Shown here: positions 7,110 to 43,776 of the stretch, piece by piece
Position numbering within the stretch: the stretch's first letter is position 1
Layout of the letters: the number at the start of each line of letters is the position of its first letter
NCBI GenBank assembly: GCA_010356995.1
Contig: ML996690.1
Coordinates: 809,420 to 873,419, forward strand
From: Trichodelitschia bisporula
Taxonomy: Eukaryota
Length of the DNA stretch: 64,000 bases
Direction: 5' to 3'
The notes under the pieces: generated by a model
What the model was told of the DNA's origin: nothing
The model's input: the letters and a program-made list of their open reading frames with translations, nothing else
Databases searched by the model: none
Made by a program: the position numbers and the translations under genes

Positions 7110-7229
7110 TGACAAGAGTGGGATTCGAACCCACGCCTATTACTAGACCAGCAGATTGGGAGCCGCTTCCACCCGAGGGCTGGATGTGGAACCTGAAGCT
7201 GGCGCCTTAGACCGCTCGGCCATCTTGCC
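7110..7229 (-). tRNA. tRNA-Leu(CAG) with a 38-nt intron (7154-7191)
   Basis: Reverse complement GGCAAGATGGCCGAGCGGTCTAAGGCG-CCAGC-TTCAGG[intron]T-GCTGG...GGTTCGAATCCCACTCTTGTCA: acceptor stem, D-loop GG, anticodon CAG, long variable arm, TTCGA loop; 82-nt mature length; T5 Pol III terminator at 7099-7103. Confidence 0.95.
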
Positions 7230-35983: not shown

Positions 35984-37746
35984 ATGCACATAAACTTAGA
36001 GATCGCTTCGAAGTGGCCAGTCCCGAACTATGTCGACCCGGTGAGAAGGGGCCCGGAACTATGGATCGTCAGTATCATCATGTTGGTGCTGTGTACAATC
36101 GCAGTTGGCACGCGATTGTATAGCAGGATATTTATTCGCCACTGGATTGGGGCCGACGATGCCCTTGTGATCGCAGCCTATGTATGTTCTCCCAAAGTCT
36201 CTGAAGCTTTTGTTAACTTGCCATAGATTTCCACTGTCGCAGTTTCTGCAGTTGTTTTCTATGGCAATGCAAGGTTGCAATGGGATCGCCATGCTTACGA
36301 CATGCGTCTTGACGATGTTGTCCGTGAGTTTATCATTCAGTACCAGGGTGTCGCTGACTTGTCTAGCTGCACTCAAAGCGCTATACGCCTCCAAGATGCT
36401 CTGGGCCGCGTCGTCTTCGTTCACTCGGCTGTCGCTTCTTTGCCTCTTTTACAGACTCCTGGACCATTGTCAGCTTCGGCAATATCGCTGGATCTTGCAT
36501 TCCATAACCAGTTTCGTCATTGGCTTGTTTATTCTGCAGCTGGCCTTGTGCACTCTGCAGTGTAGACCAGTTAGCGCAATCTGGAGCTTTCCGGAAAGGC
36601 CTGGAGAAGTTTGCCTCGATCAACTCCCACTTCAGATGTCAACGGCAGTGTTGAACACCTTCGGAGAACTGGTTGTTGCCGTACTCCCTTTTTTCGTCGT
36701 CTCTAGGCTCCGAATGGACAACAAGCAAAAATGGAACGTCATCAGCTTACTGTCGCTGGGGATCTTTGTGACCATGATTGGCTGCGTCCGCTGCTACTTC
36801 CTCTTTATGACCATCTGGACAGCAGACCCGAATTGGTGGAGCACTCCGCATTGGATTTGTTCCGAGCTCGAGATCGACTCTGCCTTGGTACGTATTCTGA
36901 TAGTCAAGGGAAACTCCGTGCTCACTCGTCCAGATTTGTGCATGCGCCCCGGCCTTGCGCCCACGTATTGTAAGCCTTTGGCGGAGATACAAAAAGAGTC
37001 AGAACAACGCGCCGAAGCCGACGAAGCGAATCACCAGCGACACTGGTGATACGAAACTGACATCCGCTAAAGACCCGGAGGACATGCCGACATGGGGGAC
37101 TACGGTGTTCAGGACCATTGATCTGGAGGGAATCGCCATTGATGGCCTAGGATACACCGTTCGGATATCCGGTCCCTTCTGCAAGAAGAAGAAGAAGAGC
37201 GCAAGGAAGGAGGAGTGGATGGCCAGTATGACTCGTAAGGGTTCGTCGGCGGAGAACCTGGGGATATCTTCCCAGGCTTCCCAGAAGCAGCCTGTCGAAA
37301 TTGTGACAGAAAAGAGTTTTGAGGTGCGGGAGAGCTTCCATGAAAACATACTGGACGAAAACAGCTGGCGGTTTTGGGCTATGTCGCAGCAACGCTCTAA
37401 TGAGGAGGATATGGATATCGAGATTGAGCGCGCTGGTGCGGGGTTGAACGACTGGTCTTTGTTGGACAACCTTCCGACTCCTCAATCACCAGCATCACCA
37501 CCGGACGAGAGGCGAGACGGATCTCTTGAAGGACCACCTAGAATCAGCATCACACATCAGTATTCACCACCCCGTAATGTCGAATCACGGCCACAAGGTG
37601 CCACAACACACCCACCAACACCAGAGATACCCCGCCCGCCACCATTGGCTACAAGTCCGCCGAGATCACCGCGTCGGACTTCTTCTATTACACGACCGCT
37701 GAATTCGTGTCGATTGCTTGATACCAACCACGGGCGAGCGCCGTAG
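35984..37746 (+). CDS. PTH11-like (fungal rhodopsin-domain, non-CFEM) 7-TM protein; introns 36182-36226, 36324-36366, 36888-36933
   Basis: WPVPNYVDP; RLYSR...GADD; WDRHAYD; QCRPVSAIW; LPFFVVSRLRM; SELEIDSAL-ICACAPALRP; all three introns canonical and frame-consistent. Confidence 0.9.
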
Positions 37747-38925
37747 CCATATGTATGTTTAATGAAAGTCTTGAAGGTAACTTTGCCTGTGCTTCTGAAG
37801 CCGAGTGTATGATGACAGGCGTCGTTTCGCTTGGCATGAAGGCCCGGGACGTCGGACAGAAGAGCCAACGGTATCCAGGTTATCTTACGACAGGGTCCCC
37901 ATTAGCCCTACTACTCAGAAGATACAAAGCCCCTGTCGAGATCGCGGTCGGCATTTTGCAGAGAACCAAGGTGAATGGAAATCGGTTCATTAAGATATTT
38001 CCCACGAGGTAAGCCTTGTCCAGGTTTCAAGGTTGACACCCCTCGTATGTAGGTCGAATTTGTTCCTCAATACTTCTTTGCACGGGCAATATGCGGAAGA
38101 AGATGGTGAATTTGATACTTCACGGGGGTAACGTCCAGTTGCCAGCCCTGCTGCCCAAAACGGGTGCAGCAGTCGCCCACAGCATCGGCCCTACCCGCAT
38201 CTTTCCGCGTTTGATGCAAGCAGATACGATATCGGAAAGGACTTTGGTGTATGCAGCACTGCAGCTCCGCTCAAACAAGCAGGTATCTGGCAGAGAAGCA
38301 ACAGATCTCGATCCCTGTGGGAAATAGCCGGGATTAGGCTGAAATACATGAATGGAGTAAGAAACTGCCTCTTGCCGTGGGCGGATGTGGAAACGGAGAG
38401 GAGACTCCAAATCAAATTACGATAAAGCTGTTGGCTGACGGCAAAGGCCCTCCTGCACGTAAAGTCCTTATTCATGAAGTTGGACCTTGTGAGCAGGCTG
38501 AAAGCGAGAGTGGGATGGGGATGGAGGAGGAGCGAGCATTACGTAGTGTCGCTCGCAAACCTTTGGCGAGGAAATTCGCGCACCAAAGACGCTTGGCGGC
38601 GAAGGAGAGGCGCGACGCAGCAAGCAAGCCCTGGACCGGCAAACCCCGTGCTTGCATCAAAAAGGCGACGACTTTCTTGCTCTGTCTCCGAACACCTTTT
38701 GCTCCGTCAAATCCTCTCCTCACTGCGCTCTCGTCCTGCATTGCCTTCTGCCGTTGCTCTCTTATTGATAGTCTCTTCCCTAGCTCTCTTCCAAAAATTG
38801 TGTAAATCTCCGCCTGATCGTCGATCTCCCGGAGCGCGCCTTTGCCCCGACGTCAAAAGGATCCACTTTTCCACCAAAAAATTATTCTCTTGATATTGGC
38901 CACGCGACCGCGAAAGCTTCATCGA

Positions 38926-38949
38926 ATGTACAAACGTGCCTTACTCTGA
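38926..38949 (+). promoter_or_regulatory. Short AUG uORF (MYKRALL*) upstream of AdoMetDC
   Basis: ATG TAC AAA CGT GCC TTA CTC TGA seen directly; whether it lies inside the transcript is unverified. Confidence 0.4.
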
Positions 38950-38982
38950 TCACCACTTCACCTAGCCACTCAGCCTTCTTCC

Positions 38983-39106
38983 ATGCGACGCGAGGATCTG
39001 GTTCGCTTTCTGTCTAAGCCCGCGAAGTGAGTGGCGTTACTGCTTCATTCTCCCACACGAACCGCAAATTCTGACCCCCCCCCCCCCCCCCCCCAGGCCC
39101 AGATAA
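38983..39106 (+). promoter_or_regulatory. Spliced AUG uORF MRREDLVRFLSKPAKPR* spanning leader intron 39027-39096
   Basis: GTGAGT donor at 39027, CTGAC branch at 39071, C20 tract 39075-39094, CAG acceptor ending 39096; spliced frame ends AAG CCC AGA TAA. Confidence 0.65.
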
Positions 39107-39225
39107 CACCAGCTACTTGCGCCCCAAGCCACCAATCTACACACGCATAGCAGATATCCTCGTCTGCTAGACCCGATACTTGTACGGGTATCGGACTCTA
39201 CGGTCGAGGCCCTAGAATAGCCACA

Positions 39226-39276
39226 ATTTCTCCGCACAAGTCCTCTTTCGTCCCGCTTTCGGCCCGCCCGCCCTAG
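39226..39276 (+). promoter_or_regulatory. Candidate AUU-initiated uORF (M)SPHKSSFVPLSARPP*
   Basis: GCCACA-ATT initiation context; 16 sense codons ending CGC CCG CCC TAG. Confidence 0.55.
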
Positions 39277-39411
39277 CACCCCTCCGGGAGACTCTTGATA
39301 CTCCGGTCTGCTGCTGGCAAAAGCCAGCCTCCTCTTTAGCCCCACAGTTCGTGGGCCATTCGGGTGGTCGAGCTTCGTACACTAGCCAGCCTCATCAACA
39401 AACAGCTGGAG

Positions 39412-40929
39412 ATGGTCACCATTGATATCCCCAAGAACTACACAGCCTCGCCGTCGTCCTTTGTAGGGACGCCACATCTCACTATCAATCGCGACGCGAC
39501 TATCGATCTCGACTCTACCAATGCATTCGAGGGCCCTGAGAAACTGCTAGAGGTATGGTTCAGCCCGTCCGCAGCTGCCCTGCCGGCCTCATGCTCGCCG
39601 CTGGGCTTGAAGGTGGTCTCGCAGGATACCTGGAAGGGGATGCTTGATCTCGTCAATTGCCAAGTGCTGTCCGTCATCGAGTCGGAGCATGTTGACGCCT
39701 ACCTCCTGTCCGAATCAAGTATGTTCGTATTCTCGCACAAGCTTGTGCTTAAGACCTGCGGGACGACCACTCTCCTCCTTGGCCTCCCACGCATTCTCGA
39801 GATTGCTGCTCTAGATGCCGGTTTTCCGCATGTTGGCGCCAACCTCATGGCGTGCAATCCCGCTGCCGCTACTCCATACCGTGTCTTCTACAGTCGCAAG
39901 AACTTTCTCTTCCCGAACAAGCAACGCGGTCCGCACCGCAGCTGGCGCGATGAGGTGCGTTTCATGGACCGTCTCTTCTTGAGCGGCAGTGCGTATATGA
40001 TCGGTAAGATGAACGGGGAGCACTGGTATCTGTACATCACCGGGCCGGACACGCGCCTCACCCCTCCTGCGACCCCTGATCACGACATGTCGCCAACGGA
40101 AACGAAGTTCATGTCGCTGCCGGAGCGCCAGCGCGTCGTCGGCTTTTCAGACGCGGCTGAAGATGACGAAACGCTTGAGGTGCTTATGACGGATCTTGAC
40201 GAGCAGAATGCTCGCCAGTTCTACCTGGAGGACGCCAGCGCCGTTGCTGAAGGCCGCTTCTTCCAGAGGGCGCGCGATGCTCGCCACAAGAAGGCCGCGC
40301 TTGCGACCATTGGCGAGGAGAAAGCTACCAGCGATGGCACATTCGACGTTTTCGTACAGACGTCGTCTGACCATGAGGAGTTTTCATCGGAAGATGACAG
40401 CGAAAGTTTCCCGGAGATTACCGAAGGCCACGCTCTTGGCACCGTCGTTTCCGATTCTTGCGGCTTGTCCGACGTCTATCCTGTGTCCAAGTATCCCGAT
40501 GCTCGCATCGACTCGTACCTCTTTTCACCCTGCGGCTTCTCCGCCAACGGCGTCATCCCCGCCCCCGCGGGCACGAAGGCCACACACTACTTCACGGTTC
40601 ACGTGACGCCGGAGCCGCACTGCTCGTACGCGTCCTTCGAGACTAACGTTCCGTCGCGCCAGAGCGGCCGCGAGACGGCAGACCTCGTGGAGCAGGTGGT
40701 ACGCATCTTTAAGCCGGGCCGGTTCACGGTGACGCTGTTTGAGGCGCAGCCAGGCGAGCGGGACGGGCTCGCCGCGGCGAAGCGCTCGGGACGCATGGAT
40801 TCCATCGAGGGCTACAAGCGCATTGACCGCATTGTCCACGACCTCGACGGGTACGATCTCGTGTTCCGGTACTACGAGCGGCTGGACTGGAAGGGCGGGG
40901 CGCCGAGGCTCGGCGAGGTGGAACATTGA
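39412..40929 (+). CDS. SPE2: S-adenosylmethionine decarboxylase proenzyme (intronless CDS)
   Basis: AFEGPEKLLEVWF; self-cleavage motif YLLSE-SSMFV; LKTCGTT; FSPCGFSANG; TVHVTPEPHCSYASFETN. Confidence 0.97.
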   Translation: MVTIDIPKNYTASPSSFVGTPHLTINRDATIDLDSTNAFEGPEKLLEVWFSPSAAALPASCSPLGLKVVSQDTWKGMLDLVNCQVLSVIESEHVDAYLLSESSMFVFSHKLVLKTCGTTTLLLGLPRILEIAALDAGFPHVGANLMACNPAAATPYRVFYSRKNFLFPNKQRGPHRSWRDEVRFMDRLFLSGSAYMIGKMNGEHWYLYITGPDTRLTPPATPDHDMSPTETKFMSLPERQRVVGFSDAAEDDETLEVLMTDLDEQNARQFYLEDASAVAEGRFFQRARDARHKKAALATIGEEKATSDGTFDVFVQTSSDHEEFSSEDDSESFPEITEGHALGTVVSDSCGLSDVYPVSKYPDARIDSYLFSPCGFSANGVIPAPAGTKATHYFTVHVTPEPHCSYASFETNVPSRQSGRETADLVEQVVRIFKPGRFTVTLFEAQPGERDGLAAAKRSGRMDSIEGYKRIDRIVHDLDGYDLVFRYYERLDWKGGAPRLGEVEH

Positions 40930-43776
40930 GGTGGATGGGTTGAATTTGGCACCAAATTGTGATGGAGGGATTGGTGGAGCGATGACTGATGATTGTGATC
41001 ATGCTTGCTGCGTTCGCGTTGAGTGTTTTGCGCTCGTTCCGTGGCCTTTGCGCTTGTTCTGATGATCTGCGTACTCACGATGAATTTGATCCCTATGCCT
41101 GCTTTCGATCGGCCGGATTTCGTGAGTTGCATATCTACTCGCGACCGCGACGTGCGTTAACGACAGTCCGAATCAAGCTGACCGCTGACCTCACGAACAG
41201 CTTCGGACCTTTCCGGACCTCACAGTGTGTACCTATCCTTCCAAGACACTTTTTGGTCCAAAGAAGTGACTGTGAATGGGATTTCTGCCCCCAACCTCTT
41301 GCTGACACGTCAAGATCGGCATAATGCGGGGAAAAATTCCACTCGAGGTCCCAAGAAGATTGGAACTACGAGGTTGAGTCCGGAGAAGCAGCTCCGCAGC
41401 CCCTCACCTTCACAATGAGAACGTTTGCCAGACTTCCTGCGGTCAAGGAGGTTGTTACCAATCTGTTTCTCCAAGCATTTTACGGATCCCTCTCCGCTCC
41501 CTCCCAGGACTTGAGATTGGTCCATTGTGCCGATCGTAATATATGGATTGGACCGCAAGGTCCTGTACGATGCCCTGAGCCGGCCCCACGGGCACCGTCT
41601 GGCTCCTTTCCAAGCTGTCGGCTTCGTCGATGGACCCTGAGCTCTTCTCAACTTTGACATCGAACGCTAATATCTCACGCTAGGCATCCTGACCTCAGTT
41701 TGACATACGTCCTCACCTCCACGGGTTATTTCCCAGATGCGCCAACAAAATGAAACTATCCGCTACCGATCTCAACAACATGGCCCAACCACTTGGGCCT
41801 CCCTTGCACACCTTGCTACTTCACAGCAACACAAGTGGCATGACAGTGTTCATGCAATTCTCGGTTCATTGGCTGTATAAACTGAATCGGAATGTCAAAG
41901 TCCCAAGTCAAGTATGGCTACATGCCGATCAGACCTCCCTAAGCCCGGGTGGTGCCCTCGGACGTGCCTCCGCTGGAGTCCTCACCGTTATGCTTGACAC
42001 CAATGGGGAACTGGACTACTGGAATCTGCGCTTGCTTGTTGATGAGACGAATACGAACAGCATTCTTTAGAATGAACAACCCTTGGATGCTCTCAGCTTG
42101 AATAGACAATCCAGAGTCGTCTATCTCGATGCGGCATACTTTGGCTTCCCCAAGGCATCATTTCCAGTCGTTACCATAAACATAATTTTCCGATTTTACA
42201 TCTTGCCATGATGCAGTTGACTAGACTGCTTCTCATTTCACGGCTGATATGGGCCCTCTGAGCTCAAGGTGCGGTCCGTCCGTTTACTTAAATTAACTAA
42301 CTCTAATAGGCGTAATCTTATGCAGTCCTGTTGTGGTCACAGTTACGCAGTTCGCCACATCAATCTCTTTGTCTAGCTCCGTTGTGTCCTGCGAGTCCAA
42401 CTCATCAACCTTTGCTTTCGTTCCTTCCAGCGACACAACAGCGGCCTTTGAATCTGAGACTTCATCGAGCTCGTCCACGTCCCAAAGTACGGGTATTTCC
42501 TCCTTTCACACCACCTCGTCCACTGCAGCTCTGCTAGCAGGCCTTGCGGCCCCCTTGCCTTTCCGTCACAGCTTGAGCACGTCGTGGAGTTCCTCCGGCC
42601 TCGCGACGGGCTCCACAACATCTGAGCAGTTGTCTGGCTCTTCGGTCGAACCCCTTTCCACTATGCTTTCGCCTTCCAGCTCCCCTGGCCAGAGCTCGGT
42701 TATGGAAGAGTCAGCTTCTAGTTCCCTCACTCAAACATCGTCGAGCATCCCGTCTGCTTCTAGCCCTGAGATCGCGGCCACCCCGTCCTCGTCGGCCAGT
42801 CTGAGCATTTCTGTATTCACGACGAATTCGTCCACAAATGCCTCCGTTTCCATTCCGTCAAGTTCGACGGAACTGGTCTCGAGTAATCCTTTCATCTCTA
42901 GCAGTTCCTTAACCTCGAACGGTGTCTCCGCCTCCTTCAGCCCCGTCTATGACCTGCAGTTCTCCCACCATTAGCAACGCTTCCTTACATAGCAACTCGA
43001 CCTCAAGTGGCGCTTCTACCTCAGATCGCGCTTCGCTCTCAAGTAGCACCTCTACATCTGGCAATGGACCTCCATCAAGCATTCTTTCACACAGTAGCCA
43101 GCCCGCTCCCAGTAGCTCTTCGGTCTCGACAACTATTTCTTCAGCTGGAACTTCCTCAACACAAACTACTTCCTCTGGAACTCCTTCTCTGAGCTCAGCC
43201 TCCGGTAACTTTTCTTCGAGCTCCGCTTCCACGACATCGTCCGTTCCGAGCAGTCCTCTATCAACTAGCAGTTCAATAACTTCCATCTCTCAAACCTCGC
43301 CATCCAGCGGTGCGATATCAATATCCGCGAGTTCACCGGCTGCACCAGTTGGTACTAGCTCTTCGGCCGACGCTTCATCCTCAAGTCAGACTTCAGGTTC
43401 CATTCCGAGCTCCCTCTCGGTGTCGAATACTACACTTTATTCTGCGGATGTTTCAGACCTCTCGAAGTCAGCATTGGATTCCACATCGGCTTCAGTACCG
43501 GCTTCAATGGCCGCATCAGCGTCTACTTGGTCCGGTTCGTCAATCTCAGGCTCTTCCGCTTCATCGATAAGTTTAAGCTCCCCCGTATCCTCCACCAACC
43601 CACAATCATCCACGTCTACCGATAGCGGGTCCGCGTCTACCAGCCCTCTGAGCCTTGGCTCCTCTCTACCGATTTCGCCATCGAGCAACTTGTCCACGAA
43701 CTCCTCCACTCCCGCCTCGTCTTCTCCTAGCAGCATTATCTCCTCTGGTACAACGTCTAGTTCGACAACAGCTACA

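Follow-up and report, generated by a model that had tools for sequence, protein, structure and literature searches.

Conserved hairpins around an AUU upstream reading frame in the SPE2 leader of Trichodelitschia bisporula

The 64,000-nt window analyzed here (Trichodelitschia bisporula contig ML996690.1, positions 809,420 to 873,419 of the forward strand) carries on its plus strand an intronless SPE2 gene (39412–40929). Its 505-aa translation is an S-adenosylmethionine (SAM) decarboxylase proenzyme that matches Pfam PF01536, S-adenosylmethionine decarboxylase, at E 6.8e-118, and its closest named homologues are from Dothideomycetes, at 73–74% identity. By this enzyme SAM is committed to the synthesis of polyamines, and in animals and plants its translation is under tight feedback control. 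A first-pass annotation of the DNA had proposed that five RNA hairpins, stems 1 to 5, flank an open reading frame upstream of the main one (uORF), with an AUU start, in the leader of this gene. All five pairs of complementary segments were found to be exact, two of them lying before the AUU (39226) and three after the stop codon (UAG, 39274–39276). A regulatory role of the stems is likely, since they lie in a transcribed, spliced leader and most of them are conserved beside a conserved AUU uORF.

The placement of the stems in the SPE2 leader, upstream of the PF01536 gene, was borne out by assembled contigs of two runs, X1 and X2, which begin at 38689 and 38651, respectively, and join 39026 to 39097. 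The run contigs span 38651–41151 at a depth of 277–659, against 4–12 in the flanks. The GT..AG join implies a spliced mRNA with a leader of at least 376 + 315 = 691 nt. Leader exon 1 covers 38651–39026 on the plus strand, its 5′ limit being the start of the longest contig, with no mapped cap site. The 70-nt intron (39027–39096, plus strand) is skipped in one contig of each of the two runs and displays GTGAGT, a branch-like CTGAC, a run of 17 C and a terminal CAG. All five stems fall in exon 2, 57–264 nt 5′ of the main SPE2 AUG.

Exon 1 carries two AUG uORFs, starting at 38926 and 38983, both 5′ of the hairpins. The first (38926–38949) has 7 codons; the second has 17 codons and crosses the intron (38983–39026 plus 39097–39106), its UAA falling within a block, CAGAUAACACC (39099–39109), that is also found in the related loci L020, L027, L056, L058 and L075. 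A second CAG, 5 nt downstream of the intron end (39099–39101), is a possible alternative acceptor. A further 49-nt GT..AG skip was seen in the 3′ UTR (41152–41200) in one X1 contig, with two X2 contigs ending or beginning there; such a 3′-UTR intron could expose the SPE2 mRNA to decay.

A 22-protein SPE2 alignment was employed in one scan of metagenome contigs, yielding 80 loci (L numbers), each with the gene start and its upstream DNA. Together with the window these give 70 distinct leaders; most counts refer to 53 of the 58 leaders with the uORF described below, after removal of the truncated L009 and L039 and the duplicates L029, L051 and L064. By N-terminal identity to named proteins, the placeable loci are L001, L026, L029 and L035 (Aureobasidium-like) and L028 (Cercospora-like) only. 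RNAalifold on raw MAFFT alignments returned no pairs in the 123-nt upstream stretch or in the stop-proximal stretch, because loops of unequal length throw the arms out of alignment. The analysis therefore relied on narrower alignments, on a covariance model and on folding of the individual sequences; one of the alignments, A7, sets right a two-column register shift of the 3′ ends of the window, L063 and L076 in the MAFFT alignment A4.

The 16-codon uORF (39226–39276, plus strand; AUU … ARPP-UAG) is conserved in the relatives, where its peptide recurs as I[PS]xxKxxFIPLSARPP-stop. Of the 70 distinct leaders, 58 carry a uORF ending in RPP-stop; among the 12 without it, 8 have less than 300 nt of upstream sequence. 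Where the uORF has 16 codons, its conservation begins at an ATT with A at −3 in 49/49 leaders; in the window the start context is GCCACA, at the end of a 16-nt spacer (39210–39225). Variation at third codon positions is about double that at the first two (entropies of 0.66, 0.61 and 1.27 by codon position). The stop codon is UAA-C in 51 and UAG-C in two of the 53 leaders, so that C follows it in every one. From the AUU to the main AUG, AUG triplets are strongly depleted (5 seen, 157 expected; none in 50/53 leaders), compared with 110 seen and 143 expected 5′ of the hairpins. Its near-cognate start in a favorable context, the constraint on its codons and the prolines ahead of its stop make the uORF, on its sequence, a predicted member of the upstream conserved coding (uCC) type. 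The accessible text of Ivanov 2010 describes uORFs with a penultimate proline in AdoMetDC leaders of Pezizomycotina.

Upstream of the AUU, stem 2 pairs CCGATACTT (39173–39181) with GGGTATCGG (39186–39194) around a GUAC loop, forming 9 bp with two G.U pairs. Alone it folds at −11.5 kcal/mol, with a z of −3.7 against dinucleotide shuffles, the control used for all single-stem z-scores of the window. This stem is the apical helix (P3) of a 52-nt three-helix hairpin (39158–39209, plus strand). The basal helix P1 joins CCUCG (39158–39162) to CGAGG (39205–39209), and P2 joins 39164–39166 plus 39168–39171 to 39197–39203 with C39167 bulged. The composite hairpin folds at −26 kcal/mol (z −4.51; none of 200 dinucleotide shuffles as good), versus −21.9 kcal/mol on the minus strand, the plus strand folding better because G.U pairs are frequent.

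The composite hairpin corresponds to a conserved block 5′ of the AUU, (A)AGCAGAU..CCUCG-U-CUGCU(A/G)GA-C-CCGAUACUU-loop-GGGUAUCGG-AA-UCUnnCAG-nn-CGAGG. From 31 leaders a covariance model of it, R1, was built; it finds the hairpin in 33 leaders at E < 1e-5, with scores of 36–86 bits on the plus strand and at most 23 bits on the minus strand; the window, which is among the building sequences, scores 65.7 bits. In alignment A7, 89.3% of the 740 cells of the hairpin are paired, against 34–41% with slid partners, and five pairs, in 8 cells, have changed on both sides, a number reached by 3 of 500 shuffles. An unfitted alignment gave a similar picture (88.7% paired, five pairs changed on both sides). 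The clearest compensations of the hairpin are in P1, where CCUUG/CAAGG (L042), CCUCA/UGAGG (L080) and CCUCU/AGAGG (L063) replace the common form.

The spacing to the uORF is also constrained: the 3′ end of P1 lies 15–20 nt before the AUU in 36 leaders, and that of P3 lies 30–36 nt before it in 40 leaders, including leaders without P1 and P2. The modules of the hairpin can be lost one by one: five leaders keep P1 and miss P3 (L027, L033, L041, L056 and L075), at least seven keep P3 alone (L011, L014–16, L018, L028 and L060), and two miss P1 (L019 and L031). In the lineage of the five leaders without P3, the basal CCUCG/CGAGG is extended to 7 bp, about 45–20 nt 5′ of the ATT, and they form a natural deletion series.

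Stem 1 (TAGCAGA, 39148–39154/TCTGCTA, 39163–39169) folds alone at −10 kcal/mol (z −3.9). Its 5′ half contains the 5′ box AGCAGAU (39149–39155, plus strand), which is complementary to UCUGCU (39163–39168) and nearly invariant in 31–33 leaders. Both halves of the stem are nearly invariant in sequence across leaders. Stem 1 and P2 both use UCUGCU, and the 5′ strand of P1 lies inside stem 1, so the two folds are mutually exclusive; in the minimum-energy fold of 39146–39212 stem 1 is missing because the 5′ strand of the composite hairpin contains its 3′ half. We regard stem 1 as the weaker alternative pairing, and a conserved alternative pairing at this site is possible.

Such an alternative would gain function if the two folds formed a switch, in which ribosomes or polyamines shift the 5′ box onto UCUGCU and thereby alter the barrier before the AUU and the use of the uORF. 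The folds differ by only about 4 kcal/mol on average over 33 leaders (mean −21.8 for the composite and −17.7 kcal/mol for stem 1 plus P3), and every leader with the partner also keeps the 5′ box (33/33). The hairpin base, 15–20 nt from the AUU, would also sit near the trailing edge of a 40S subunit placed on that codon. Still, in 31 of the 33 leaders the composite fold is ahead of stem 1 plus P3, in 32 it is the fold of minimum energy, and stem 1 shows no pair changed on both sides: the variants in L032, L049 and L042 just break its pairing. For the published SDC hairpin, discussed below, no polyamine binding was seen (Li & Breaker 2017, PMC5640933). Taken together, a two-state switch appears distinctly unlikely.

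Beyond the uORF, a hairpin of at least 4 bp starting no more than 8 nt past the stop codon (H3) was detected in 40 of 53 leaders. Its stem takes at least five different sequences (AACGUC/GACGUU, CGAC/GUCG, CCCCU/AGGGG, GACC/GGUC and ACG.CC/GG.CGU), its mean z is −1.6 against mononucleotide shuffles, unlike the dinucleotide shuffles used for the single stems of the window, and control windows taken from the same leaders fold less stably (Mann-Whitney p 7e-7). The window has in place of H3 a 3-bp alternative, CCC/GGG (39279–39288). Stem 3 of the first-pass annotation (39284–39306, plus strand) pairs CCGGGAG (39284–39290) with CTCCGG (39301–39306) around one bulge at −4.3 kcal/mol. It is weak and window-specific, without counterpart in the relatives’ leaders, and is probably without consequence.

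Stem 4, GCUGGC-AAAA-GCCAGC (H4; 39313–39328, plus strand), folds at −11 kcal/mol (z −2.7; 5/200 dinucleotide shuffles as good). The motif GCUGGC-N(3-6)-GCCAGC is present in 53/53 leaders with about 18 different loops of 3–6 nt. Its six core pairs are identical in 47–49 of 49 distinct rows, and two compensatory events were found, U-A to C-G and C-G to U-A. The H4 3′ strand with its flank, GCCAGCCTC, occurs twice in the leader (39323–39331 and 39385–39393) and four times in the window, where 1.1 matches are expected; the second leader copy could pair with the H4 5′ strand. The idea that the 5′ box pairs over a long range with UGCUGCU, flanking H4, was dropped, as L065, L067, L069 and L080 change the flank and leave the box unchanged.

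Stem 5, CCCAC-AGUUC-GUGGG (H5; 39341–39355, plus strand), folds at −7.7 kcal/mol (z −2.27; 4/200 dinucleotide shuffles as good) and is conserved. Its 3′ strand, within GUGGGCC, is nearly invariant, and a full 5-bp complement lies 3–9 nt upstream in 32 of 51 leaders; further leaders, outside this count, have a 4-bp H5 with shorter loops. Changes in the 5′ strand are mostly C-to-U, and the variants UCCGC, CUCAC, UUUGC and CCUAC still pair through G.U; in four leaders the 5′ half is replaced by a purine run. A reading of the H4–H5 block as coding sequence from CUG codons was rejected because H4 loop lengths of 3–6 nt break any frame.

The stems of the first-pass annotation thus fare unequally. 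Stems 1, 2, 4 and 5 fold better than dinucleotide shuffles, with stem 3 at chance; stems 2, 4 and 5 are conserved and stem 1 is conserved in the sequence of its halves, with stem 3 not conserved. The covariation expected among orthologs was found, under shuffle control, for the composite hairpin and as compensations in H4, and was absent from stem 1.

A further hairpin, H6, was identified in most relatives. It reads UCAGGCGGACA-CCGCAU-UGUUCGUCUGG, has 11–12 bp, which covary strongly, with a conserved CCGCA loop, and is located about 10–45 nt 3′ of the GUGGGCC box in loci from L003 to L080 (e.g., L006:2360–2391). RNAalifold assigns it nine pairs, four with double changes; 88.6% of its cells are paired, and 24 cells have changed on both sides, a number that none of 500 shuffles reaches. 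Its covariation score of 0.337 was likewise reached by 0/500 shuffles (shuffled mean 0.279). A covariance model, R2, has 49 plus-strand matches in 66 related sources. The GCGG of the H6 5′ strand can alternatively pair with the CCGC of the loop.

With its filters off, R2 finds no H6 in the leader of the window, and over 37000–41500 its top match (E 0.2) is a minus-strand one within the coding sequence. Direct alignment A11 places the deletion at 39356–39363 (plus strand), where about 33 nt are missing and both flanks align. H6 is also absent from L002, L022, L031, L076 and the Aureobasidium-like leaders. The H6 site is followed by a conserved block, GGGUGGCAGAUAGUGCUUCAC in relatives and GGGUGGUCGAGCUUCGUACAC in the window (39362–39382), with a possible 4-bp hairpin whose GGCA/UGCU is GGAA/UUCC in L027.

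The accessible portion of Li & Breaker 2017 (BMC Genomics 18:785, PMC5640933) describes the SDC motif as a small hairpin with an 11-bp stem, of possibly variable length, immediately upstream of the SDC gene, with 34 examples from 26 species of Pezizomycotina. As for the gene, the five stems of the window do lie upstream of a PF01536 gene with Dothideomycetes as its closest homologues. As for the stem, P3 has 9 bp, and the sole 11–12-bp hairpin of the leader family is H6, which the window lacks. We prefer H6 over P3 as the SDC motif on account of its stem length, its covariation, its short distance from the main ORF and a published pipeline that dropped clusters with coding potential (Li & Breaker 2017, PMC5640933). 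Judged by description only, H6 is probably the better fit, with P3 a lesser though real contender. If H6 is the SDC motif, the window lacks the published element, and no description is in print for the composite hairpin, the 5′ box, H3, H4 or H5. The two systems share the gene, the fungal subphylum and the leader with its introns, and a small hairpin near uORFs, repressing in the published case; they differ in that the accessible text reports one hairpin (Li & Breaker 2017, BMC Genomics 18:785), compared with at least six conserved helices in this leader family. A full-text literature search returned no further paper on structures in the Pezizomycotina SPE2 leader.

The response to a ligand suggested by the first-pass annotation found no support. 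The scan with Rfam 15 of 38900–39500, which includes the leader segment with the stems, gave no family match at E <= 10, and in-line probing reported in the accessible part of Li & Breaker 2017 (PMC5640933) detected no binding of spermidine or spermine by the SDC hairpin. As far as this null scan shows, Rfam 15 does not include the SDC family. With no Rfam family and all elements being simple hairpins, the leader does not qualify as a riboswitch.

According to the same accessible text (Li & Breaker 2017, PMC5640933), stem-breaking mutations of the Neurospora crassa SDC hairpin raise reporter output and compensatory mutations restore repression; the N. crassa leader is alternatively spliced, and hairpin mutants leave the levels of its splice forms unchanged. 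The last of these results bears on the idea that the helices 3′ of the uORF shield the mRNA from nonsense-mediated decay or steer leader splicing, with no throttling of ribosomes. The transcript does have decay-attracting features, namely three uORFs, a leader intron and a 3′-UTR intron, and the alternative splicing in N. crassa would suit such a role. Given the unchanged splice forms of the published mutants and the distance of 50–260 nt by which the stems lie 3′ of the intron, we consider this explanation very improbable.

We therefore favor, with a confidence somewhat above even, the reading that the stems are part of a conserved, ordered helix set in the mature SPE2 leader, which brackets the AUU RPP-stop uORF and acts together with it as a series of translational throttles. 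The helices would be barriers that 40S subunits have to melt when scanning past the AUU or re-scanning after the uORF, and this melting would limit and adjust how many ribosomes reach the main AUG. The stretch with H3–H6, from the uORF stop to the main AUG, is almost free of AUG. The Pro-Pro-stop in its weak UAA-C or UAG-C context is a likely polyamine-sensitive stall site, by analogy with AMD1, plant SAMDC and AZIN1. H3, 0–8 nt past the stop, could occupy the mRNA entry channel while RPP-stop is decoded and so prolong the pause. Since polyamines stabilize RNA helices, the series could add graded feedback that is not specific for one ligand.

The first-pass annotation had instead suggested that the stems slow scanning so as to favor the near-cognate start. 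Boosting a weak start reportedly needs structure about 14 nt 3′ of it, in work attributed to Kozak in 1990 and Guenther in 2018. The idea does not agree with the geometry, as structure is missing about 14 nt 3′ of the AUU and two of the stems lie 5′ of it: the nearest 3′ stem is 54–58 nt past the AUU, and the uORF interior of the window (39226–39276) is unstructured (z +0.86, best fold −3.5 kcal/mol). A ribosome-queue register was also tried and set aside: with a ribosome paused at the stop, the 40S subunits in the queue would stand about 30 and 60 nt back and thus miss the AUU, which is 45 nt upstream.

Several observations weigh against the throttle reading. The leader as a whole (39097–39411) folds no better than shuffled sequence: its z is −0.93 (17/100 shuffles as good), and that of the minus strand is −0.60. 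The stem 3 region (39274–39310) is at chance (z +0.61; 137/200 shuffles as good), and the stop-proximal hairpin of the window is weak (−3.2 kcal/mol, z about 0). The window also lacks the best-supported hairpin of the family, H6, whose loss implies that no single helix is indispensable. Runs X1 and X2 come from one sample of one study; they are flagged as RNA by guess, and their RNA status is inferred from the spliced contigs alone. The leaders are mutually related, so sequence counts do not equal independent events, and the shuffle controls ignore phylogeny; alignment A7 is model-based, having been fitted to R1. Covariation is thin because stems 1, 2 and 4 are conserved mostly as sequence, and the changes in P3 are mainly one-sided wobble. 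An invariance that exceeds the needs of pairing points to recognition by a factor rather than to a plain barrier.

In that case translation, or what becomes of the mRNA, would be set by a factor that docks on the stems in a sequence-specific way, for instance eIF3, an RNA-binding protein or the decarboxylase itself, and not by helix stability. The strands of H4 and P3 and the 5′ box do stay nearly invariant while loops and flanks drift, and CUGCUGG recurs in both P2 and the flank of H4. Yet P1, H4 and H6 have undergone compensatory changes, which shows selection on the pairing as such, and the compensatory SDC-hairpin mutants described in the accessible text of Li & Breaker 2017 (PMC5640933) restore repression. 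Factor docking is thus fairly unlikely as the explanation.

The unremarkable whole-leader z-score, together with the symmetry of H4 and H5, which fold equally well on the minus strand, could also mean that the inverted repeats are DNA-level sites or arose by chance, with incidental RNA folds. We disfavor this as extremely improbable. The G.U pairs in P2, P3, H5 and H6 correspond to A.C mismatches on the other strand, the arm spacing of H4 varies over 3–6 nt, which a dimeric DNA site would not tolerate, the region is within a highly covered spliced transcript, and R1 gives the plus-strand scores reported above, higher than those of the minus strand.

The throttle reading was further compared with known systems. 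Polyamine-responsive uORFs, a class treated by Ivanov 2010, include the AZIN1/ODC uCC with its AUU start and Pro-Pro-Trp pause, the mammalian AMD1 MAGDIS uORF and the small uORF of plant SAMDC. Like these polyamine-responsive elements, the SPE2 leader has a short conserved uORF in a polyamine gene, with a near-cognate AUU in good context, C-terminal prolines and a stall expected near the stop. In those systems the peptide and a ribosome queue are held to act, without conserved flanking hairpins, whereas the SPE2 leader has conserved helices at a fixed distance 5′ of the start and directly after the stop. In antizyme +1 frameshifting, a polyamine-sensing site at a stop codon is followed a few nucleotides 3′ by RNA structure. 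The SPE2 arrangement is comparable, with structure 3′ of a stop codon at which recoding or stalling would sense polyamines; in contrast, there is no sign of a frameshift product in the SPE2 leader, where the frames after the uORF stop are not conserved because of the variable H4 loop length, and the stop-proximal hairpin of the window has little stability. Generic inhibitory 5′-UTR hairpins, known from Kozak’s experiments and from yeast leader studies, must be unwound by scanning subunits. The SPE2 helices resemble them in having energies of −8 to −26 kcal/mol in a long leader, and differ in that, unlike generic barriers, they keep their sequences, positions and order between deeply diverged leaders (enzymes 59–72% identical).

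Elsewhere in the window, an Rfam scan of its whole length at gathering thresholds yielded a tRNA gene at 7110–7229 (minus strand) as the sole match. It scores 47.6 bits and has a 41-nt insertion after the anticodon stem, as in an intron-bearing tRNA.

Beyond the throttle reading, we tentatively suggest, as an idea that is itself unlikely to hold in full, that the SPE2 leader is a multi-part translational control unit. In it, the composite hairpin and the competing 5′ box would act as a ribosome- or polyamine-responsive switch that sets entry into the uORF, H3 would prolong the Pro-Pro-stop pause, and the further hairpins would gate re-scanning. If true, the leader would do with scanning ribosomes, in a eukaryote, what leader-peptide attenuation does in bacteria.

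For fungi, what is in print comprises a uORF and a single repressing hairpin, and the mode of polyamine sensing is a question raised by the authors themselves. The present comparison adds a series of helices whose order is deeply conserved and which stand at fixed distances from both a near-cognate start and a weak stop. P1, P2, P3, the 5′ box, H3, H4, H5 and H6 provide mutable targets for studying how helices and uORF may cooperate, and natural deletions, of H6 in the window and of P3 or P1/P2 in other leaders, offer ready-made comparisons.

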